Below are positions 22,333 through 58,333 of a stretch of DNA of 64,000 nucleotides, piece after piece. The translations under genes were made by a program, and so were the position numbers. Below the pieces are notes generated by a model. The model made no database searches. It was not told the DNA's origin and was given only the letters and a program-made list of their open reading frames with translations. Source of the DNA: Escherichia coli (GTDB lineage: Bacteria; Pseudomonadota; Gammaproteobacteria; Enterobacterales; Enterobacteriaceae); NCBI RefSeq assembly GCF_030384885.1, contig NZ_CP128613.1; one strand, written 5' to 3'. How positions within the stretch are numbered: the stretch's first letter is position 1; every line of letters starts with the position of its first letter.

Positions 22333-22370
22333 TGCCGGATGCGGCGCGAGCGCCTTATCCGGCCTACGGG
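22333..22370. repeat. REP element
   Basis: gccggatgcggcgcgagcgccttatccggcctac between rhaA and rhaD. Confidence 0.75.
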
Positions 22371-22410
22371 TCGTGCATCCGACAACACCGAATTTACAGG
22401 AACACAGAAC

Positions 22411-23559: not shown

Positions 23560-23568
23560 TTGCCCAAT

Positions 23569-23604
23569 GTGCCGGAAACGCCTCCGGCACAATACTTTTA
23601 ATTT
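23569..23604 (+). terminator. probable terminator after rhaM
   Basis: Hairpin gtgccggaaacgcctccggcac followed by a T-rich stretch. Confidence 0.5.
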
Positions 23605-23872
23605 CTACTTAAAAAAATAAACATATTGCACCTTCAATGAGTATATCCAGGCAAGTTATATTTCCCCGATACATTATGAGCAAATCACAAAAATAATGAA
23701 TAACTCATTAATGATTCATGTCGTTTATTTAAATAACCATTATTTGCATTACTCCGCAAACCTGACCTTTCCCTCTATCTCAAATTGTCATCGTTTGCCG
23801 ACATATCGACTCTCATCACTTAGTCGCTCCACCATTACAATGGGTTAAAATATATTTTATGGAGTTCGATTA

Positions 23873-24421
23873 ATGGCTGCTCTTACTGCAAGCTGTATTG
23901 CCTTGAATATTCAGGGCAATAGCGATTATTCCATTCTGAGACAGCTGGCTACAATAGCATGTCAAAATGGTTTCATTACCGATTCTCATACGTTTCTGCA
24001 GACCCTACTGCGACGCGAAAAAATGCACTCCACAGGATTTGGTTCTGGCATTGCCGTACCACACGGTAAAAGAGCCTGCGTTAAACTACCCTTCGTGTTA
24101 TTCGCCCGCAAAGCACAGGCCATTAACTGGAAAGCCAGCGACGGCTAAGGCGAAAACCTGATTGTTAATCGTCTCGCCATCCCACATGGCTGGAGCGAAC
24201 AGGAACGCCGTTTTCGTGGATTTTTTATTACCCTCGCCCAACCGCTCGAGGTGAATAACGAAGTCATTAACCATGTGTTGATCGCCTGTGCCGCCGCTGA
24301 TGCGCGCCACGAGTTGAAAATATTCAGCTCTCTGGCAAGCGTACTATGTACGTATCCGGCGGAGACTATTGCCGGGCTAACGGGATATGAAGGGTGTATA
24401 GCGTTACTTCGTCAGGAGTGA
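23873..24421 (+). pseudogene. frvA: PTS EIIA-type (frv-like) remnant interrupted by an in-frame TAA
   Basis: One frame reads ...FGSGIAVPHGKRACV...ASDG-stop(24146-24148)-GENLIVNRLAIPHGWSEQ... to 24421; two IPHG-type EIIA motifs; lies where frvABXR sits in K-12, which spans several kb. Confidence 0.5.
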
Positions 24422-24459
24422 ATGATGTCGGATCCACGTTTGACACGGCTTAACGACGT

Positions 24460-24497
24460 GTAGGTCGGATAAAGCGTTTACGCCGCATCCGACCTTG
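24460..24497. repeat. REP element
   Basis: gtaggtcggataaagcgtttacgccgcatccgacc. Confidence 0.7.
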
Positions 24498-24522
24498 TAT
24501 TTCTCAGCAAAAATAAAAACGT

Positions 24523-25578
24523 TTAACGCAGGCGATTATAATCATCGACCATTTCGTTGTACTCACGTAATGCTCTCGGGAAAGAGTCGTCGACCATCCA
24601 ACTTGTGTTTGCATCCTGAAGTTGCTCTTTATCCCAGTCAGAATACGGAACTTTATCTCTGACGCGGCGAACATATTTTTTAGCCTCGAGTTGATACTGG
24701 TCTGCCGAATTAATGAACGAGAAATTCATACCGCCTTTATCCGCTTCTTTGGCCTGCGCCACCAGCGTTTCCAGTTCAGAGACTTTCTTCATTGCCGCAT
24801 CAACATCAAACTTCTCTTGCGAAATCAGGTTATTAATTTGTTTCGCTGAAATCATGACTGCCAGGGAGTAGTAGTGGAATGTTTTTCCTTCTGTTTCTTC
24901 AATATTTTTCAGTTCCGCAAGCTGACGCTTATCGTTAATTTCCTGAATCGCCGCATGATAAGATTCTGCTACAGGTTCAAAGGCTTCAAGATTTTTTAAG
25001 AATGTCTGGTGCAGCGTTTTCCCTTTCGCAAACGCATCGTCTTTATAATTTTCCTGGGTGTAATATTTATCCATTTCGTTAATGGTATTACCCAACGCCA
25101 CGGCAGCATCAATATAACTCACCGCCACGCCATCAATAGGTTGCAGCGCAGGCGTTAACGCCACAGCACTTTTTACGCCTTTTTCACACTCAGCGAGGTT
25201 GGATTCACTAATACCGTAGATACCATAAACAGTACGCTCTTCACCGGTAGGGCCCTGTTTAAAATCTTTCAGCCAGTCAGCATAACGCGCCAGACTGCTC
25301 TGTACAGGGATCTGTAACTTGTTGTAGCACTTGATATAGACATCCATTTTTTCGTCGAAAACCGCTTGTTCATCGACCACCGGTTGAGCAGGCGTTTCAG
25401 GTTTAACTTCTGCTTTTGCAACGGGAGCTTCAGCAGGTTTCGCTTCAGGAGCTGGTGCGGCAGGTTGACTATTGGCAGGCGGGGGCGTTTCTGTTTCGGA
25501 TTTTTTATCGTCACAACCCGTGAGACCGAGGGCCATTATGGCGACTATAATAGCGGAAGATAATAAATTCCTTTTCAT
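24523..25578 (-). CDS. yiiG: DUF3829 lipoprotein
   Basis: 351-aa ORF with lipoprotein signal (LGLTGC); synteny. Confidence 0.85.
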   Translation of the reverse strand: MKRNLLSSAIIVAIMALGLTGCDDKKSETETPPPANSQPAAPAPEAKPAEAPVAKAEVKPETPAQPVVDEQAVFDEKMDVYIKCYNKLQIPVQSSLARYADWLKDFKQGPTGEERTVYGIYGISESNLAECEKGVKSAVALTPALQPIDGVAVSYIDAAVALGNTINEMDKYYTQENYKDDAFAKGKTLHQTFLKNLEAFEPVAESYHAAIQEINDKRQLAELKNIEETEGKTFHYYSLAVMISAKQINNLISQEKFDVDAAMKKVSELETLVAQAKEADKGGMNFSFINSADQYQLEAKKYVRRVRDKVPYSDWDKEQLQDANTSWMVDDSFPRALREYNEMVDDYNRLR

Positions 25579-25788: not shown

Positions 25789-28095
25789 CTACATCCCGTA
25801 GCGTTCGGCAATAGTGGCATGTTTCTCTTCATTCGCCCCGGCTTCTTTGGCGAGACGCCACCAGCACAACGGATGTTCCCAGTCAGCGGTCAATTCGTGC
25901 AAGGTCTTATCGATATCACCTTTAGAAATTGAACGCGGCGCACTGATAACAAAGTAGAATGCGGGAAGTGGCTGCGCATCTTCACCCTGATGACTGTCCG
26001 TTAACGTATAGTCGTCATTACTGTTGCTCCAGTAGTACCAGTTTCGTTCACGGAGCGCCTCACGGAAAGTATTAAACTCTTCTTCACCAGGCATGACACC
26101 TTCGCAGAACCAGGACTCGCCGTATTCGGTCGGGATAATGGTGTTCAGGCACCCATAAAGCGGAGTGAAATTCTTCCGTTCTTCCTCATCCTCTGGTTGG
26201 GTGTTCAATATTTCTGCATCGAATACCACAACTTCATCAACATGTTGCGGATAATCGGTCCGGTAAGTTGGCTCAATGATCCTTGCTGTTACCGGCCCAA
26301 TACGTTGAGCATAGTAATAGCGGTATTCATAATTTTCCCGGAAGCGGATGTTTAACAGCCCCCATTTTTCGTCAATAAAACCTTCGCCTTCCGTGAGCTC
26401 GATTTCCAGTTCAGCAGCAATAGCACGAACCAAATCCCATTGTTGCAGGATGCTGGCGGTCGCCATGATATCCCACTGGAGATTGCGAATATCTTCTTCA
26501 CGGCTAATCATCAGTTGCTGCAATTGTTGTAAATAATCCAGCTGTCGATCCCAGGCTTCCTGTTTTTGTGCTGCCCAAGAGCACATGCGATAAACGCCAA
26601 CCCACTCACGCCCTTTTTCGTGTTGCAGCAACTGTTGCCCAATCGACTCCAGTTCACTCCAGTCTTCCTGTTGGTTGAGCACTCGCGCACGGAACCACAA
26701 GGCCATATGTAGCAGCCCCGCCTGTTCATACTGCTTCGCCAGGTGCTCAATGGTTTGCAGATCGTCACGGTGGAGCAATAAATCCAACAGATCGAAGCAA
26801 AGACCATTATCTTCCTGGATGTGGCTTTCGACGTAGCGTTGCAGAAGTTCAATCGACTCATCAATCGCATTACAGGCGTTTAACGCATTGACCAGTTTGC
26901 CCAGCAATTCCGCATCATCTGGCGCGTTCAGGTAAGCGCGGCGGAATGTTTCGACGTCTTTTTCTGGATCTGGTTGCGTTTCTTCATCGCTATTTTCAGG
27001 TACTTCTACAACCGGACGAGCAAGCAACTCTGCTTCTTTGGCGGCGATTTTTTCACTCAGTTCGAGAAACTCACGATCAACCCCCAGTAACACGCGTAAT
27101 TTTGGCATGTGTCGCTGGGCCAGTTTCATCGCTATTTTGGCAACCCAGACGGATTCACGCTCCAGCGCCAGGGTAATTTGCAGTTTCGCCAGATCAACCA
27201 CTTTGCGGTGCGCTCCGGCCTGCGAGCGGTGCTCCAGCATTTTTTGGATGATGCGCGCCAGTTGCCAGTTGTTTCTTTGTGGATGACGGGGAAGTAACAC
27301 AGTAATGATTTTCAGCCATGACCCCCATGAATGGGGAGTCAGATCTGACCAACGCGGTAATTCCTCCCAGACTTCTTCGTCCTGCCCGCATAACGCCATG
27401 ATGTACAGTTTTTTGAGGTGATTACTAATGCGGTCGCGGCCCCAGTAATCATTGGCTTCTGTCAGCTCATCAATCAGTATGCGTGCTTCATCATAACGCT
27501 GAAGTTCAATCAGAATATCGGCACGAGTATAAAGTAATGCATCAATATCATCTTCCCCGGCTGCTTTAACTGCGTCGATTTGTCGATCCAGATAAGCCAA
27601 TGCCTCCTCTATTCTTTTGGAATCTATCAGTGCACTGGCATATTCAGTGGACAAACACTGAAAACAGCTCCAGGTCGGATCAATCCGCGCGATGGTTTCT
27701 TCACATACCGCCATACGTTCATTCGCCCAGCCAGGTGCATCAATATTTTCGTAGCAGGCGGATAAATCCTGGGTAACGCAGATAGATTGTGGGCAATCTT
27801 TTGTCTCTTCCCGGTGCGCTTTTTCAAACAGCGCCACTACGTCAGGCAGTACTTTTTCACCTTCTTCGCGGTTAGTCAGGCGATGGCGCATTTCCCAGTG
27901 ACCAATAAAAATCTCCAGCCACGGATTTTTTGCCACCTGGGTAAGTGCTTTTACTTCAGGTAACAGCGAATCGCACTTTTCCATTTGCAGGTGCATAACG
28001 CCTTCCGAATAATCATCGATAAGTTGCGGAATATATTCCTGCCCGGCATCGCGTAACTCCTTAGTATATTTGTGATACCACTCCCATATATCCAT
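25789..28095 (-). CDS. hypothetical 768-aa acidic, predominantly alpha-helical protein, partner of the Hsp90-like ATPase
   Basis: Long uninterrupted ORF; ATG lies 1 nt after the stop of the upstream gene with RBS aagga; sequence is helix-rich and repeat-like; no catalytic motif recognised. Confidence 0.8.
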   Translation of the reverse strand: MDIWEWYHKYTKELRDAGQEYIPQLIDDYSEGVMHLQMEKCDSLLPEVKALTQVAKNPWLEIFIGHWEMRHRLTNREEGEKVLPDVVALFEKAHREETKDCPQSICVTQDLSACYENIDAPGWANERMAVCEETIARIDPTWSCFQCLSTEYASALIDSKRIEEALAYLDRQIDAVKAAGEDDIDALLYTRADILIELQRYDEARILIDELTEANDYWGRDRISNHLKKLYIMALCGQDEEVWEELPRWSDLTPHSWGSWLKIITVLLPRHPQRNNWQLARIIQKMLEHRSQAGAHRKVVDLAKLQITLALERESVWVAKIAMKLAQRHMPKLRVLLGVDREFLELSEKIAAKEAELLARPVVEVPENSDEETQPDPEKDVETFRRAYLNAPDDAELLGKLVNALNACNAIDESIELLQRYVESHIQEDNGLCFDLLDLLLHRDDLQTIEHLAKQYEQAGLLHMALWFRARVLNQQEDWSELESIGQQLLQHEKGREWVGVYRMCSWAAQKQEAWDRQLDYLQQLQQLMISREEDIRNLQWDIMATASILQQWDLVRAIAAELEIELTEGEGFIDEKWGLLNIRFRENYEYRYYYAQRIGPVTARIIEPTYRTDYPQHVDEVVVFDAEILNTQPEDEEERKNFTPLYGCLNTIIPTEYGESWFCEGVMPGEEEFNTFREALRERNWYYWSNSNDDYTLTDSHQGEDAQPLPAFYFVISAPRSISKGDIDKTLHELTADWEHPLCWWRLAKEAGANEEKHATIAERYGM

Positions 28096-28096
28096 T

Positions 28097-29932
28097 TTAT
28101 TTTCCTTGATTAATTAAGACAGGAATAACCTGAGTAAAATCTTCCAGTGCCTGATGTAAATCCCACTGCTGTTCTTTATTACCACTGGAGCACAAAATCA
28201 CTTTCAGCGATTTTAATAACCGTAATGCTGCCGCTGGCTGTTGATGGTGTTGTAATGCCGTCACCAGTTGCATGACACAGGGGTTATTAAGATTGATATA
28301 CAGACTTGAAGTTTTAGTCTTTTGGATTTGCGAGGTAAATTGCCGCGCCAGCATTAACGCTGCGGTGCTGATGCGTTTATCTGCGTCATCCTGTTCGAGA
28401 ATTTGTTTTAATTCTGCTTCGCGGTCTGGCGTGACCACGAGCGGTAAAACCGCTGGTTCGAAGCGGGAGATAATTAATTGCTCGCCGTCGCAAAGATGCT
28501 CTTCCAGATAAGCAACCTGCTCTTCAGGTAATTCTGCCAGGCTGAACAACTGCTCATTACCCGTTTGCGTACCGACTTCGATAATCCGGCAGTGATATAA
28601 CAGCGCCCAACGACGTAAAAATGGCACCACCGCATAACGATCGCCACGGGCTACGGGCCGTTGCAGAATATGAAACAACATCTCTTCAAAACCGCCGTCG
28701 CGGCTTAACAGAATATGAATGCTGTTATTAACGCGTAAATCCTTCGCCAGCAACGCCCCTTTTGACGTTGGCACCTGCAAGCGATCTTTGAGCAAATCAA
28801 ACAGACGGTCATCACATAATGCCGCACCGAGCAACGCTTCGTTGTGGCGCATTAATACACGCCGCCAGATTTCTGGCTGATTTTGTGCGAGATCGGACAA
28901 ACCAGAAATCAGCGCCTCTTTTAACGCCTCCTGCACCGCAACCCAGGTTTCGTCCCGCTGGAGATCTTCCCGGCTCGCCGTAGGCGTTAGTTTCGATGAC
29001 TCAATCACGCCGCCAATAAATCCGGCCCAGGGAGGTAACAACTCACGCGCTTCATCATCCAGTAACATACCGCGCAAAAACAGCGACAGGTTGCGGTTAT
29101 CGCTGGTGCCGTAGGTTGCGCCATCCTGAATCCATAAAATCCCGACCGCATCGCTCATACCCGCTGGCACCACCGGAATGGTGCAAATCGGTTCAAAGGA
29201 GGATTCAAACTGGGCGGCAAAGGCGAGATTTTTACGCTGCACCAGCGCGCGGTGTATGGTTACGCCTTCGGGGGCAACTTCACGCCACGGTGGTTGAAGT
29301 TTATTTACCGGCTCGCTGGCATCGCCGACATAGACCGGTTCGTGCAGCAATATGCAGTAGCGGGAAAGAACGCGGTTCAGCAGATTATTACTCGCCAGAT
29401 GGCTGTACTCTTCTTTGAGCGTCAGAATCACCTGCGTTCCCGGCGCCGAGGACTGATGCGGCGTAACGGTATATTTTTGCCCGTCGGTAGAGTGGTATTT
29501 CCAGCTCTGATCCGGCGTTTGCCAGGATGTGGTCAACACCGTGACCTCTTTCGCCAACACAAAGGCCGACAAAAAACCGAGGCCGAACATACCAATTAAA
29601 CCGGTGTTGTCATCCTGCTGGCGCAACATTCGGGTATAACCCACGCCCACTGTCGCCAGGAAGCCGTGAATTTCGCTTTCTGTCAGACCCGCACCGGTAT
29701 CGGTAATGGTGATGGTGGACTTCGCCACGTCTGCCACTACACGAATTTGGTTATCCTTTGGCGCATCGGGCTGCTCAATCCTGCGGCGAACGATCGCATC
29801 ATGGCCGTTCTGCACCAGCTCGCGCACGGCAACTACGGGAGTGGAGTAAAGATGCTTACTGAGCACCTCAATTAAACCGTTTAAATTAACTTCTGTAGAA
29901 TATGAACTGCCAGGTAACTGTAATGTACTCAT
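28097..29932 (-). CDS. Hsp90/HtpG-like GHKL ATPase paralog (611 aa)
   Basis: Bergerat-fold motifs: N-box RELVQNGHDA, G1 box ITITDTGAGLT, G2 box GMFGLGFLSAFVLAKEVTV; length close to HtpG; in-frame stop two codons upstream of the ATG. Confidence 0.85.
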   Translation of the reverse strand: MSTLQLPGSSYSTEVNLNGLIEVLSKHLYSTPVVAVRELVQNGHDAIVRRRIEQPDAPKDNQIRVVADVAKSTITITDTGAGLTESEIHGFLATVGVGYTRMLRQQDDNTGLIGMFGLGFLSAFVLAKEVTVLTTSWQTPDQSWKYHSTDGQKYTVTPHQSSAPGTQVILTLKEEYSHLASNNLLNRVLSRYCILLHEPVYVGDASEPVNKLQPPWREVAPEGVTIHRALVQRKNLAFAAQFESSFEPICTIPVVPAGMSDAVGILWIQDGATYGTSDNRNLSLFLRGMLLDDEARELLPPWAGFIGGVIESSKLTPTASREDLQRDETWVAVQEALKEALISGLSDLAQNQPEIWRRVLMRHNEALLGAALCDDRLFDLLKDRLQVPTSKGALLAKDLRVNNSIHILLSRDGGFEEMLFHILQRPVARGDRYAVVPFLRRWALLYHCRIIEVGTQTGNEQLFSLAELPEEQVAYLEEHLCDGEQLIISRFEPAVLPLVVTPDREAELKQILEQDDADKRISTAALMLARQFTSQIQKTKTSSLYINLNNPCVMQLVTALQHHQQPAAALRLLKSLKVILCSSGNKEQQWDLHQALEDFTQVIPVLINQGK

Positions 29933-51475: not shown

Positions 51476-52378
51476 ATGCAAATCACCAACATGCATTGCA
51501 GTGGACAAACCGTTTCACTTGCCGCGGGGGATTATCACGCGACTATCGTGACGGTTGGTGCTGGTCTGGCTGAATTAACTTTTCAGGGTTGTCATTTAGT
51601 CATCCCGCACAAACCCGAAGAGATGCCGCTGGCGCATCTGGGTAAAGTGCTTATTCCGTGGCCGAACCGGATCGCCAACGGCTGTTACCGCTATCGGGGA
51701 CAGGAATATCAGTTACCCATTAATGAACATAGTTCAAAAGCCGCTATTCACGGGCTGCTTGCCTGGCGAGACTGGCAAATTAGCGAATTAACCGCCACCA
51801 GCGTTACCCTGACAGCTTTTCTACCGCCCAGTTACGGCTATCCGTTTATGCTGGCTTCGCAGGTTGTTTATTCGCTCAATGCTCGCACGGGCCTTTCCGT
51901 TGAGATCGCAAGCCAGAATATTGGTACTGTGACCGCACCTTATGGTGTGGGTATTCATCCTTATTTAACCTGCAACTTAACATCTGTTGATGACTATCTT
52001 TTCCAGCTTCCGGCAGAACAGGTTTATGCCGTCGATGAGCACGCAAATCCGACAACGCTTCACCACGTTGATGAGCTGAATTTAAATTTCACGCGGGCGA
52101 CAAAAATAGCCGCGACAAAAATAGACCATACCTTTAAAACCGCTAATGATCTGTGGGAAATGACCATTACCCATCCACAGCAGGCACTTTCGGTGAGTCT
52201 TTGTTCCGATCAACCCTGGGTGCAGGTTTATAGCGGCGAAAAATTACAGCGTCAGGGACTGGCAATTGAACCTATGAGTTGCCCGCCTAACGCCTTTAAT
52301 TCCGGCACCGATTTATTATTACTGGAACCAGGAAAAACGCATCGCCTGTTTTTTAATATTCACGGGCAGCACAATTAA
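51476..52378 (+). CDS. yihR: aldose-1-epimerase family protein
   Basis: ORF 51422-52378; start placed at the ATG (MQITNMHCSG) preceded by aagg; the true start could be up to 18 codons upstream. Confidence 0.85.
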   Translation: MQITNMHCSGQTVSLAAGDYHATIVTVGAGLAELTFQGCHLVIPHKPEEMPLAHLGKVLIPWPNRIANGCYRYRGQEYQLPINEHSSKAAIHGLLAWRDWQISELTATSVTLTAFLPPSYGYPFMLASQVVYSLNARTGLSVEIASQNIGTVTAPYGVGIHPYLTCNLTSVDDYLFQLPAEQVYAVDEHANPTTLHHVDELNLNFTRATKIAATKIDHTFKTANDLWEMTITHPQQALSVSLCSDQPWVQVYSGEKLQRQGLAIEPMSCPPNAFNSGTDLLLLEPGKTHRLFFNIHGQHN

Positions 52379-52438
52379 TTTCATTAAGAAAAAAACGAGA
52401 TCATTGTTTAGGGTTGTATTTACACAACAGGAAATATT

Positions 52439-53314
52439 ATGGACTTTTTTACGTTATTTTCGCCAGATGGGGCCATGCTGGAAACAAACGTGGTATGTAT
52501 CGTTATCGCGTTGATGTTTCTTTATACCTTTGTGGGGATATGCGCGGGATTTGGTGGCGGTTTAACCACCATGCCACTCGTCACGTTAATGCTCCCCGTA
52601 AAAATGGCAACACCACTTTCGGTAATTGTCGGCACCGCAACCGCCTTGTACGCCACCTGGCTATCACGCAAAGAAACGGATTGGCGCTCGGCAATGGTGC
52701 TGATTATTTTCTCATTTTTGGGAATACCCGTCGGTTTATATGCGCTGTCATATTTACCCGACCATTTTATGAAAGTGGGCTTAGGTGGATTTCTTATCCT
52801 CTACTCCTTTTACAGCATGTTTATTCCTCGCCTGCCGATTTATGACCGTAACTGGATCGCCGCACCTATCGGCGCAGTAGCTGGCGCATTAGGCGCGGCG
52901 TTCTCAACCAACGGGCCGCCGATGGTTATCTACGGGATGCTGCGTAACTTAGGTCCGGCGGCATTTCGCGGCACACTGAACGCCTTCTTCACCGCAAACA
53001 ACATCGCGGTGATCGGCGGGCTGGCGACCAGCGGAATTTTGACTGTTTCTATCTTTAAACTGGTGCTGTTTTGTATTCCCACCATGATCCTCGGTTCACT
53101 GATTGGACAATATGTGCATAAACGCATTTCGGTCAAAGTGTTTCGTGTGATGGTCTTTTTATTGTTGATTGCCTCCGGTTCTATGTTGATAAAAGGTGCG
53201 TTGGGAATTCCCGCCGCTGCCGCACTTCTGCCTCCGTTTACCTTGTTAGTTATACTGCAACTGGCATTTGGTAAAAAAGTGGCGGCAATCCGCCGAGCTG
53301 AAGAAAGTAAATAA
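52439..53314 (+). CDS. TauE/SafE (TSUP) family membrane transporter, possible sulfite/sulfonate exporter
   Basis: 291-aa polytopic membrane ORF with RBS agga; Gly-rich helices typical of DUF81/TauE; embedded in the sulfoquinovose cluster. Confidence 0.7.
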   Translation: MDFFTLFSPDGAMLETNVVCIVIALMFLYTFVGICAGFGGGLTTMPLVTLMLPVKMATPLSVIVGTATALYATWLSRKETDWRSAMVLIIFSFLGIPVGLYALSYLPDHFMKVGLGGFLILYSFYSMFIPRLPIYDRNWIAAPIGAVAGALGAAFSTNGPPMVIYGMLRNLGPAAFRGTLNAFFTANNIAVIGGLATSGILTVSIFKLVLFCIPTMILGSLIGQYVHKRISVKVFRVMVFLLLIASGSMLIKGALGIPAAAALLPPFTLLVILQLAFGKKVAAIRRAEESK

Positions 53315-53421
53315 TCACTTGCGCGGGTTTTAATTTATACCCGCACACATTCTTTGATTAATGAAACCTGTAATAACAGGATGGCATGAAATATTAGTTT
53401 TATACTCTATGGAGATTATTT

Positions 53422-55503: not shown

Positions 55504-56889
55504 ATGAGTCACATCACAACGGAAGATCCGGCTACTTTACGTCTGCCCTTTAAAGAGAAACTCTCTTACGGTATCGGCGATCTGGCCTCTAACATCCTGC
55601 TGGATATCGGTACGCTTTATCTTTTGAAGTTTTATACCGACGTTCTGGGGCTGCCCGGCACCTATGGCGGTATTATCTTTTTGATCTCGAAATTCTTTAC
55701 CGCCTTTACCGATATGGGTACCGGCATCATGCTCGATTCCCGGCGTAAGATCGGTCCAAAAGGCAAATTCCGCCCTTTCATTTTGTACGCCTCATTCCCG
55801 GTCACTCTGCTGGCGATCGCCAACTTTGTCGGCACACCGTTTGATGTCACCGGTAAAACGGTGATGGCCACCATTCTGTTTATGCTTTACGGACTGTTTT
55901 TCAGCATGATGAACTGCTCCTACGGCGCAATGGTCCCCGCTATCACCAAAAACCCCAACGAACGCGCATCGCTGGCAGCATGGCGTCAGGGTGGCGCTAC
56001 ATTGGGCCTGCTGCTGTGTACGGTGGGATTCGTACCAGTTATGAATCTTATCGAAGGTAATCAGCAACTTGGCTATATCTTCGCCGCCACGCTATTTTCA
56101 CTGTTCGGCCTGCTGTTTATGTGGATCTGCTACTCGGGCGTGAAAGAGCGTTATGTCGAAACCCAACCTACCAATCCAGCGCAAAAGCCTGGCTTGTTGC
56201 AGTCTTTCCGCGCAATTGCGGGTAACCGCCCACTGTTCATTCTGTGTATTGCCAACCTCTGCACCTTAGGGGCGTTTAACGTCAAGCTCGCCATCCAGGT
56301 CTATTACACCCAGTACGTACTTAACGATCCCATCCTGTTGTCGTATATGGGATTTTTCAGCATGGGCTGTATTTTCATCGGCGTGTTCCTGATGCCTGGT
56401 GCAGTCAGACGTTTTGGTAAGAAGAAGGTCTATATCGGCGGCCTGCTGATTTGGGTGCTGGGCGATCTGCTCAACTATTTCTTCGGCGGCGGCTCGGTCA
56501 GTTTTGTGGCGTTCTCCTGCCTGGCATTCTTCGGCTCGGCGTTTGTTAACAGCCTGAACTGGGCACTGGTTTCCGACACCGTCGAGTACGGCGAGTGGCG
56601 CACCGGCGTTCGTTCGGAAGGTACGGTCTACACCGGCTTCACCTTCTTTCGCAAAGTATCTCAGGCGCTGGCAGGTTTCTTCCCAGGCTGGATGCTGACG
56701 CAAATCGGCTATGTGCCAAACGTGGCGCAGGCTGACCATACCATCGAAGGTTTACGCCAGCTGATCTTCATCTACCCAAGCGCACTGGCGGTAGTCACCA
56801 TTGTGGCGATGGGTTGCTTCTACAGTCTGAACGAGAAAATGTACGTCCGCATTGTTGAAGAAATAGAAGCCCGTAAACGCACGGCATAA
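55504..56889 (+). CDS. yihP: GPH-family sugar:cation symporter
   Basis: ORF 55471-56889; start at MSHITTEDPATL after RBS gggaga (461 aa). Confidence 0.9.
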   Translation: MSHITTEDPATLRLPFKEKLSYGIGDLASNILLDIGTLYLLKFYTDVLGLPGTYGGIIFLISKFFTAFTDMGTGIMLDSRRKIGPKGKFRPFILYASFPVTLLAIANFVGTPFDVTGKTVMATILFMLYGLFFSMMNCSYGAMVPAITKNPNERASLAAWRQGGATLGLLLCTVGFVPVMNLIEGNQQLGYIFAATLFSLFGLLFMWICYSGVKERYVETQPTNPAQKPGLLQSFRAIAGNRPLFILCIANLCTLGAFNVKLAIQVYYTQYVLNDPILLSYMGFFSMGCIFIGVFLMPGAVRRFGKKKVYIGGLLIWVLGDLLNYFFGGGSVSFVAFSCLAFFGSAFVNSLNWALVSDTVEYGEWRTGVRSEGTVYTGFTFFRKVSQALAGFFPGWMLTQIGYVPNVAQADHTIEGLRQLIFIYPSALAVVTIVAMGCFYSLNEKMYVRIVEEIEARKRTA

Positions 56890-56929
56890 ATAATAAACAA
56901 CGCCCTGCGGGGCGTTATAAGGAGTGATT

Positions 56930-58333
56930 ATGTCTGACCATAATCCACTGACATTAAAACTGAATCTGCGGGAAAAAATCGCTTATGGCATGGGCGACGT
57001 CGGTTCGAATTTAATGCTTAGCATCGGCACTCTGTATCTCCTCAAATTTTATACCGATGAATTAGGGATGCCTGCTTACTATGGCGGGATTATCTTTCTG
57101 GTGGCGAAATTCTTTACCGCGTTTACCGATATGCTCACCGGATTTTTACTCGACTCGCGAAAAAATATTGGGCCTAAAGGCAAATTTCGTCCCTTTATTT
57201 TATATGCAGCGGTTCCGGCGGCGTTAATTGCAACGCTCCAGTTTATCGCCACCACTTTTAGTTTGCCGATTAAAACGACGATTGCCACCGCGCTGTTTAT
57301 GATGTTTGGACTTTCATACAGTCTGATGAACTGCTCGTATGGCGCGATGATCCCAGCAATTACCAAAAACCCCAATGAGCGCGCGCAGCTTGCGGCTTAC
57401 CGCCAGGGTGGTGCAACCATAGGGCTATTGATTTGTACCGTAGCATTTATTCCATTGCAGTCGCTTTTTTCTGACTCCACTGTCGGTTATGCCTGCGCGG
57501 CACTGATGTTCTCCATTGGTGGCTTTATTTTTATGATGCTGTGCTACAGAGGCGTCAAAGAGCATTATGTGGACACGACGCCAACCGGACATAAAGCCAG
57601 TATTCTCAAATCTTTTTGCGCGATATTTCGTAATCCGCCATTGCTGGTTTTATGCATTGCTAACCTGTGTACCCTGGCGGCATTTAATATCAAACTGGCA
57701 ATTCAGGTCTATTACACCCAGTATGTGCTGAATGATATTAATTTATTGTCGTGGATGGGATTCTTCAGTATGGGATGCATCCTCATCGGCGTATTGCTGG
57801 TGCCATTAACTGTAAAATGTTTTGGTAAAAAACAGGTTTATTTAGCTGGCATGGTGCTGTGGGCGGTGGGGGATATCCTGAATTATTTCTGGGGCAGTAA
57901 CTCTTTCACTTTCGTCATGTTCTCTTGTGTCGCCTTTTTTGGTACGGCCTTTGTAAACAGCCTGAACTGGGCGCTGGTACCGGATACCGTAGATTATGGT
58001 GAATGGAAAACAGGTATACGTGCCGAAGGTTCTATTTATACCGGTTATACCTTCTTTCGTAAAATTTCAGCCGCACTTGCTGGCTTCTTGCCAGGCATTA
58101 TGCTGACGCAAATCGGTTATGTTCCCAACATCGCGCAAAGCGATGCAACATTACAGGGTTTGCGTCAGCTCATTTTTATTTGGCCTTGTGCGCTGGCGAT
58201 AATTGCTGCATTGACGATGGGATTCTTTTACACGCTCAATGAAAAACGTTTTGCGATGATTATTGAGGAAGTTAACCAACGCAAAAATAAAGAGATGGCG
58301 ACAGAAGAAAAAACGGCTTCCTTAACGTTATAA
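56930..58333 (+). CDS. yihO: GPH-family sulfoquinovose transporter
   Basis: ORF 56924-58333; ATG start after RBS aaggag (467 aa); paralog of yihP. Confidence 0.9.
   Translation: MSDHNPLTLKLNLREKIAYGMGDVGSNLMLSIGTLYLLKFYTDELGMPAYYGGIIFLVAKFFTAFTDMLTGFLLDSRKNIGPKGKFRPFILYAAVPAALIATLQFIATTFSLPIKTTIATALFMMFGLSYSLMNCSYGAMIPAITKNPNERAQLAAYRQGGATIGLLICTVAFIPLQSLFSDSTVGYACAALMFSIGGFIFMMLCYRGVKEHYVDTTPTGHKASILKSFCAIFRNPPLLVLCIANLCTLAAFNIKLAIQVYYTQYVLNDINLLSWMGFFSMGCILIGVLLVPLTVKCFGKKQVYLAGMVLWAVGDILNYFWGSNSFTFVMFSCVAFFGTAFVNSLNWALVPDTVDYGEWKTGIRAEGSIYTGYTFFRKISAALAGFLPGIMLTQIGYVPNIAQSDATLQGLRQLIFIWPCALAIIAALTMGFFYTLNEKRFAMIIEEVNQRKNKEMATEEKTASLTL

Follow-up and report, generated by a model that had tools for sequence, protein, structure and literature searches.

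A fused frvA'-'frvR segment between rhaM and yiiG, very probably a non-functional relic of the frvABXR operon in Escherichia clade I

The segment at positions 23873-24421 of the window (the whole 64,000-nt stretch of DNA that was analysed) consists of the 5' end of frvA joined to the 3' end of frvR, and it is regarded here, with high confidence, as a non-functional relic of the frvABXR operon. The order of genes between rhaM and yiiG in K-12 is frvA-frvB-frvX-frvR, as the original prediction had stated and as was verified in that genome. The relic shares the chromosomal position, strand and neighbours of this operon (encoding an EIIA, an EIIBC, an aminopeptidase and a regulator), and its two halves are orthologous to the frvA 5' end and the frvR 3' end. 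The rhaM-yiiG interval measures 963 bp in the window versus 5,066 bp in K-12. In total, ∼4,168 bp of K-12-equivalent DNA are gone, comprising the 3' end of frvA, all of frvB and frvX, and most of frvR (calculated from the aligned breakpoints, L002 2851 and 7001, and corrected for a 19-bp overlap). To the earlier description the present analysis adds an order of events: the deletion gave rise to an in-frame chimera, neutral drift followed, and the stop codon came last.

Features of the relic and its two spacers, with coordinates in the window.
Feature	Position	Strand	Remarks
rhaM-frvA' intergenic region, 313 bp	23560..23872	+	K-12-type, without carbohydrate porin gene; matches K-12 rhaM-frvA spacer end to end, 86.6% identity
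Terminator-like hairpin 3' of rhaM	23568-23591		Within the rhaM-frvA' spacer
frvA', codons 1-91, fructose-like PTS EIIA	23873..24145	+	Corresponds to K-12 frvA nt 1-273, 84.6% identity
Deletion junction, 7 bp, GGCTAAG	24143..24149	+	GGCGAAG in both K-12 parents; crossover inside
TAA stop, from GAA (Glu) by G>T at 24146	24146..24148	+	Sublineage of the window only
'frvR, last 90 codons and stop	24149..24421	+	Corresponds to K-12 frvR nt 1477-1749, 86.8% identity
frvR-yiiG spacer, 101 bp (K-12: 49 bp)	24422..24522	.	88-91% identical to clade VI and 06-00048 spacers
REP-like palindromic element in frvR-yiiG spacer	~24463-24503		Rfam naRNA4 (REP-derived), 30.8 bits, gathering score 59.5

The reading frame described originally, with its GIAVPHGK motif, its internal TAA and a second IPHG-like motif, was recovered in every detail. 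The ORF that begins at the ATG (23873-24148) codes for 91 amino acids and includes the codon of the phospho-acceptor His64 (24062-24064) within GIAVPHGK, while the C-terminal third of the EIIA domain is gone. Beyond the TAA the frame stays open to a TGA at 24419-24421. This second half encodes part of the C-terminal EIIA-like domain of FrvR, including the motif LAIPHGW (His codon 24185-24187), the HTH domain and the remainder of the gene having been deleted. Alignment of 23873-24421 to the K-12 genes, a check proposed with the original prediction, revealed frvA nt 1-276 followed in the same frame by frvR nt 1477-1749, at identities below those of the flanks (95-97%). In megablast comparisons with thousands of E. 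coli genomes, both halves were matched with E-values of 1e-84 to 0, well beyond what chance would give.

Domain assignments point the same way, and together with the K-12 alignments they agree with the proposal of a hybrid of frvA 5' and frvR 3' left by a deletion inside the operon. Residues 1-91 match positions 1-91 of the 148 in the NCBIfam FrvA model (NF007389) at 155 bits, which exceeds the cut-off of 151 bits but over that part of the model only; a sequence-only annotator can therefore call a protein from the 91-aa stub. The second half matches positions 497-585 of the 586 in the FrvR model (NF007366), where its score of 136 bits falls short of the cut-off of 426, the N-terminal HTH and the central region of FrvR being absent. 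Pfam PTS_EIIA_2 (PF00359) is detected twice in the read-through translation, at model positions 3-94 of 144 in frvA' and 54-119 in 'frvR; a complete EIIA domain (∼144 model positions) is thus lacking, since the 91-aa product covers 3-94 and the chimera restarts at 54. The EIIA-like end attributed to FrvR was likewise confirmed, K-12 FrvR carrying HTH_11 at residues 5-60 and PTS_EIIA_2 at residues 455-560. The conserved G-x-A-x-P-H-G loop with His64 is retained in GIAVPHGK as a putative site of phosphorylation. The gene for the cognate EIIBC, frvB, is absent, as is frvX, and yiiG starts 101 bp past the relic. A sigma-70 consensus scan of the rhaM-frvA' spacer gave no match and is uninformative as to the presence of a promoter; in the downstream spacer, Rfam yielded nothing beyond the sub-threshold REP-like match.

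The relic is already known to public annotation, in that RefSeq/PGAP treats each piece as a partial pseudogene, with the label 'PTS fructose transporter subunit IIA, incomplete, missing C-terminus' at 23873-24145 and 'putative frv operon regulatory protein, incomplete' at 24149-24421. A stretch of 971 bp around the relic matches one complete genome at 100%, the E. coli 2013C-4282 chromosome (NZ_CP027579.1); all other complete E. coli genomes show only 80-90% identity to each relic half. Strain 2013C-4282 is stx1-positive and belongs to Escherichia cryptic clade I, serotype OG9:H45 (PMC10100065). The identical 91-aa ORF occurs in 515 index blocks of public assemblies, in a constant context, and a JGI metagenome contig also carries the relic, which excludes an assembly artefact.

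The junction can be placed within a few nucleotides. The window aligns up to 24152 with K-12 frvA nt 1-280 and from 24134 onward with K-12 frvR nt 1462-1749, so that the junction 7-mer sits within an imperfect match of 16-19 bp (24134-24152). The parental bases switch from frvA (GCCAGCGAY) to the left of 24143 to frvR (GCGAAAACCTG) to the right of 24149. The heptamer GGCGAAG is common to K-12 frvA and frvR, and the clade I alleles share GCGAAG.

The deletion had been ascribed to recombination between two homologous EIIA-like domains, and both breakpoints do lie within PTS_EIIA_2 domains. A RecA-dependent unequal crossover in which the frvA and frvR EIIA domains paired is nevertheless extremely improbable as its source. 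Despite the common Pfam family, BLASTP of FrvA against the C-terminus of FrvR returned no alignment with E-values up to 100 allowed. In DNA, blastn of the two K-12 genes against each other has its best patch at the junction itself (frvA 262-277 / frvR 1462-1477, 14/16, E 0.33), which is at the level of chance, given that frvA and frvR have 92 7-mers in common; the longest exact words that they share are 9-mers. Furthermore, the join passes from PTS_EIIA_2 model position ∼94 to ∼54, ∼40 positions out of register. The null results of BLASTP and blastn, together with this register shift, rule out homologous recombination of the EIIA domains in register. The same shift accounts for the duplicated His loop. 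The second motif was thus rightly read as a trace of the deletion; its cause is the out-of-register join and not domain homology.

These features support a microhomology-mediated, out-of-register deletion, as judged from the alignments. In the ancestor of one clade I sublineage, a single illegitimate event would have taken out ∼4.17 kb, using 6-7 bp of microhomology (GGCGAAG, within the 14/16 patch) that frvA nt 271-277 and frvR nt 1471-1477 presumably shared by chance. The route may have been replication slippage or another RecA-independent microhomology join. The DNA lost comprised the 3' end of frvA, frvB, frvX and frvR up to nt 1,476. Equal codon phase at the two breakpoints yielded an in-frame chimera of 182 aa (FrvA 1-92 and FrvR 493-582), in which domains joined ∼40 positions out of register carry the phospho-His loop twice and make up no complete EIIA fold. 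This chimera then drifted without selection, and in the lineage of the window (OG9:H45, including TW10509), the G>T change at 24146 converted the junction Glu to TAA and left an N-terminal stub of 91 aa.

The stop codon is a later G>T change and not a product of the deletion, since the junction codon is GAA in all of the intact alleles examined (5/5 frvA and 5/5 frvR) and 14/14 fusion copies outside the lineage of the window (L019-L032) have G at 24146. The hybrid pseudogene with an in-frame stop, as originally proposed, therefore stands as a pseudogene, with the amendment that its stop is younger than the deletion, as the GAA of the sister copies indicates. All 14 fetched copies are located between rhaM and yiiG, have the same junction and are 97.8-99.3% identical over rhaD-yiiG. 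An exact look-up of the window translation, with Glu in place of the stop, retrieved a public 182-aa protein (P0142), and six more 182-aa variants were found, one of them WP_416136337.1 and one from clade I strain MOD1-EC4550. The open 182-aa ORF (WP_416136337.1; Escherichia sp. MOD1-EC4550; 'PTS fructose transporter subunit IIA') agrees with the window in junction, length and locus; in these sister clade I strains the junction reads GAA, whereas the window has TAA and can encode the first 91 residues only. An intact gene of the same length elsewhere had been named as an observation that would speak against a hybrid, and such 182-aa ORFs (e.g., WP_416136337.1) formally fit that description, but they are the same fusion before the stop was acquired and do not refute it. 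Among the sampled forms, that with TAA is the most frequent (515 index blocks, clade I strain TW10509 included).

The existence of an open form raises the alternative that the in-frame 182-aa chimera is or was a working EIIA-like gene, with two phospho-His loops and with HPr/PTS partners, and that the stop is a secondary loss, possibly selected if the product was harmful. The chimera is exactly in frame, it retains the frvA start, the ribosome-binding region and the upstream spacer, both of its halves still score as PTS_EIIA_2, and its frame is intact in several diverged strains of clade I, with WP_416136337.1 as an annotated protein. The substitutions after the fusion argue otherwise. Leaving out a 57-bp patch in L031/L032, apparently converted from a K-12-like frvR allele, the fusion haplotypes differ by nine nonsynonymous changes and one nonsense change versus six synonymous ones. 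The neutral expectation, derived from all single-base changes of the ORF, is ∼70-73% nonsynonymous, which the observed 10/16 nonsynonymous or nonsense changes fit, and the constraint that held before the deletion (omega 0.13) is rejected for the post-fusion changes (P = 0.0017), in a polymorphism sample that is small (16 changes). Amino-acid replacements hit residues that are conserved from Escherichia to Kluyvera, e.g., K23, S67 and D85. The out-of-register join leaves no complete EIIA fold in the chimera, and its partner genes frvB and frvX are gone. The truncated form is also the commonest, with 515 index blocks versus 24, 15, 6, 6 and 1 contigs for the five open forms that were looked up. 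On balance, a working chimera is very unlikely.

The frame is broken in three independent ways: by the TAA in the window, by a 4-bp deletion at 24064-24067 in L019, which spans the His64/Gly65 codons, and by an additional T at ∼24220 in L031/L032. Such repeated breakage could alternatively reflect selection against the chimera product. A fuller version of the same alternative, in which the 182-aa chimera would be a young, expressed EIIA-like protein of clade I that receives HPr phosphate on two acceptor loops and whose stop and frameshifts were selected to silence it, is considered decidedly unlikely. The 182-aa frame is still open in 7/10 protein variants, i.e., in most of the sampled fusion haplotypes, and the 'frvR half shows zero amino-acid variation among the open forms. 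Synonymous and spacer sites are, however, equally invariant from 24152 to 24564, so that the invariance of the 'frvR half reflects low diversity and not protein constraint; constraint as its cause is thereby ruled out.

In summary of its status, the segment is truncated relative to its intact syntenic orthologues, its remaining frame carries a disabling lesion (the TAA), and relaxed selection and independent lesions are seen in its relatives, within a small sample. As to its status as a fusion gene, the junction is closed in the window by the TAA and open in the sister strains (182-aa ORF), and purifying selection after the fusion was not detected. On this sequence evidence the chimera appears to be decaying and not a new gene, and a lack of function is the probable state of the relic.

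A further feature is the deep divergence of the allele. Compared with every intact allele (K-12, SBF22, clade I EC42405, MFDS1019527 and clade VI), the relic shows a dS of ∼0.55 (± 0.09) and a dN of ∼0.08, with dN/dS of 0.13-0.15; the flanks of MFDS1019527 match the window as closely as those of EC42405. This distance is about that between E. coli and clade VI (dS 0.49-0.74), whereas intact E. coli and clade I alleles differ by a dS of only 0.08-0.20. The flanks are 98.8-99.4% identical to those of EC42405 and MFDS1019527, the ∼99% identity extending leftward from the relic for 10 kb and rightward for 1 kb, and dS of rhaD, rhaM and yiiG versus EC42405 is 0.015-0.07. By comparison, the intact alleles of EC42405 (L017) and MFDS1019527 (L018) match the relic and its spacers (23560-24600) at 77-87% identity, the differences being mostly synonymous. 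Both of these strains carry a porin gene and an intact frv operon at the same locus, while the upstream spacer of the relic is of the no-porin type of K-12 (86.6% identical).

It could be supposed that the relic is the frv of clade I itself, deleted long ago and diverged by 13-17% through neutral decay alone. The 38 private substitutions of the relic, versus 4 in the same 543 nt of K-12, would be in keeping with such decay, as would its nonsynonymous excess (dN ∼0.08, versus 0.045 for E. coli compared with clade VI). This account is unlikely. Neutral decay predicts a dN/dS near 1, and the divergence is mostly synonymous (0.13-0.15); if the ancestor was an allele of clade I or of the E. coli type, the dN excess predicts a dS of ∼0.22 and not 0.55; the flanking rhaD, rhaM and yiiG have diverged from EC42405 by a dS of only 0.015-0.07; and only ∼3% of the relic divergence looks post-deletion. 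A dN/dS of ∼0.14 and a dS of 0.55, set against these flanks, rule out neutral decay as the sole process. Mostly synonymous divergence between near-identical flanks implies that most of it built up under purifying selection, which suggests that frvA and frvR were still working genes when it arose, in a lineage roughly as far removed as clade VI.

Two origins may be envisaged for this ∼1-kb allele: it may have entered clade I by recombination, or it may be an old haplotype. Linked to the notion of a young expressed protein is the possibility that the whole allele entered clade I from an unsampled Escherichia lineage as diverged as clade VI. Protein searches with each half retrieved no intact parental allele, the best full-length FrvA being 88% identical. 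None was found among 100,044 species-representative genomes either, where the scan gave clade VI and two Kluyvera loci only, and a 33-mer lying immediately to the left of the junction matched nothing in JGI metagenomes except this relic, TAA included.

Additional variation was noted at this locus. In clade VI, clade I, SBF22 and the allele without frv (L009, L012-L015, L017 and L018), a carbohydrate porin gene of 1.4 kb occupies the space between rhaM and frvA; neither K-12 nor the window has it. The identity of the K-12-type spacer to the frvA upstream region of the porin type reaches only ∼75%. In L031/L032, the region equivalent to window 24260-24316 contains 12 substitutions in 57 bp of the 'frvR half, partly with K-12-like frvR states, a pattern suggestive of gene conversion of the relic by an intact allele.

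The survey of the rhaM-yiiG interval that had been proposed with the original prediction was run on complete E. coli genomes, and frv DNA was detected in 4,216 of the 5,426, the remaining 1,210 (∼22%) having none. A rhaM-porin-yiiG' deletion allele, without frv and with a truncated yiiG, accounts for 1,166 of the 5,426 genomes. In this allele frv was also removed at the same locus, but with other breakpoints and with no frv DNA left. An IS1 element is present between rhaM and yiiG in at least 11 further genomes; these IS1-associated deletions of frv have breakpoints other than those of the relic, with the element left in place of the operon, and are further independent routes to frv loss. The IS1 strains without frv include the complete genomes H193-H203 (e.g., NZ_CP123247.1 and NZ_CP022912.1), some with a truncated yiiG. 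Several loss alleles in many genomes indicate that frv is dispensable and that its loss is common and recurrent.

A second frvA'-'frvR remnant was found in two complete genomes, 06-00048 (O36:H14) and GF43 (L012/L013 6501-7012, 276 + 236 bp). It is also a fusion of frvA 5' and frvR 3' between rhaM and yiiG, annotated as two partial pseudogenes, and its left end falls at frvA nt 276, at the same GGCGAA as the window junction. In contrast to the window, its frvR part begins 37 bp later, exactly at the 9-mer ATTGCTGGA that is common to frvA and frvR; the remnant is out of frame, and the porin gene, lacking upstream of the window relic, is kept. The GF43 copy is 98% identical to the intact E. coli-type operon of SBF22 and only 84-87% identical to the window relic, and no derived bases common to the two fusions were found beside the junction. 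Given the close match to SBF22, the 06-00048/GF43 remnant probably represents a deletion independent of that in the window.

For biology at large these findings carry little weight, being an ordinary loss of an operon that is absent in about one-fifth of E. coli genomes and whose deletion has followed at least four routes. Their value lies in a clean, datable microhomology deletion that produced an in-frame chimera, with the stages of decay still visible: an open frame, a nonsense change and two frameshifts. They also call for caution in annotation, since the same DNA is a pseudogene in a complete genome and a 'PTS fructose transporter subunit IIA' or 'PTS sugar transporter subunit IIA' protein in drafts. 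The junction and the G>T change at 24146 may serve as markers of clade I sublineages, and the large distance of the relic from all known intact alleles gives a hint of ancient or foreign haplotypes between rhaM and yiiG.

Other features were observed in the window. Between yiiG and fdhD, a two-gene insertion (25789-29932, minus strand) encodes a 768-aa protein with a faint TPR match only and a 611-aa HSP90-family/HATPase_c_3 ATPase (NCBIfam PRK14083, 288 bits, cut-off 455). PADLOC gave weak TmtA and REase matches for the ATPase and none for the 768-aa protein. This insertion is absent in K-12, clade I EC42405 and L027/L028, and is present in SBF22, GF43 and most fusion-bearing loci. The rhaA-rhaD spacer contains one 41-bp REP-like unit (22333-22373), which matches four successive positions of the K-12 spacer and thus leaves the spacer ∼370 bp shorter in the window. 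Two stretches, 37992-42955 and 52370-53363, have no collinear match in the corresponding K-12 region, representing indel differences downstream of the fdo genes. Finally, 55555-58245 contains two adjacent paralogous genes, probably yihO and yihP, which are ∼68% identical to each other's K-12 counterparts.
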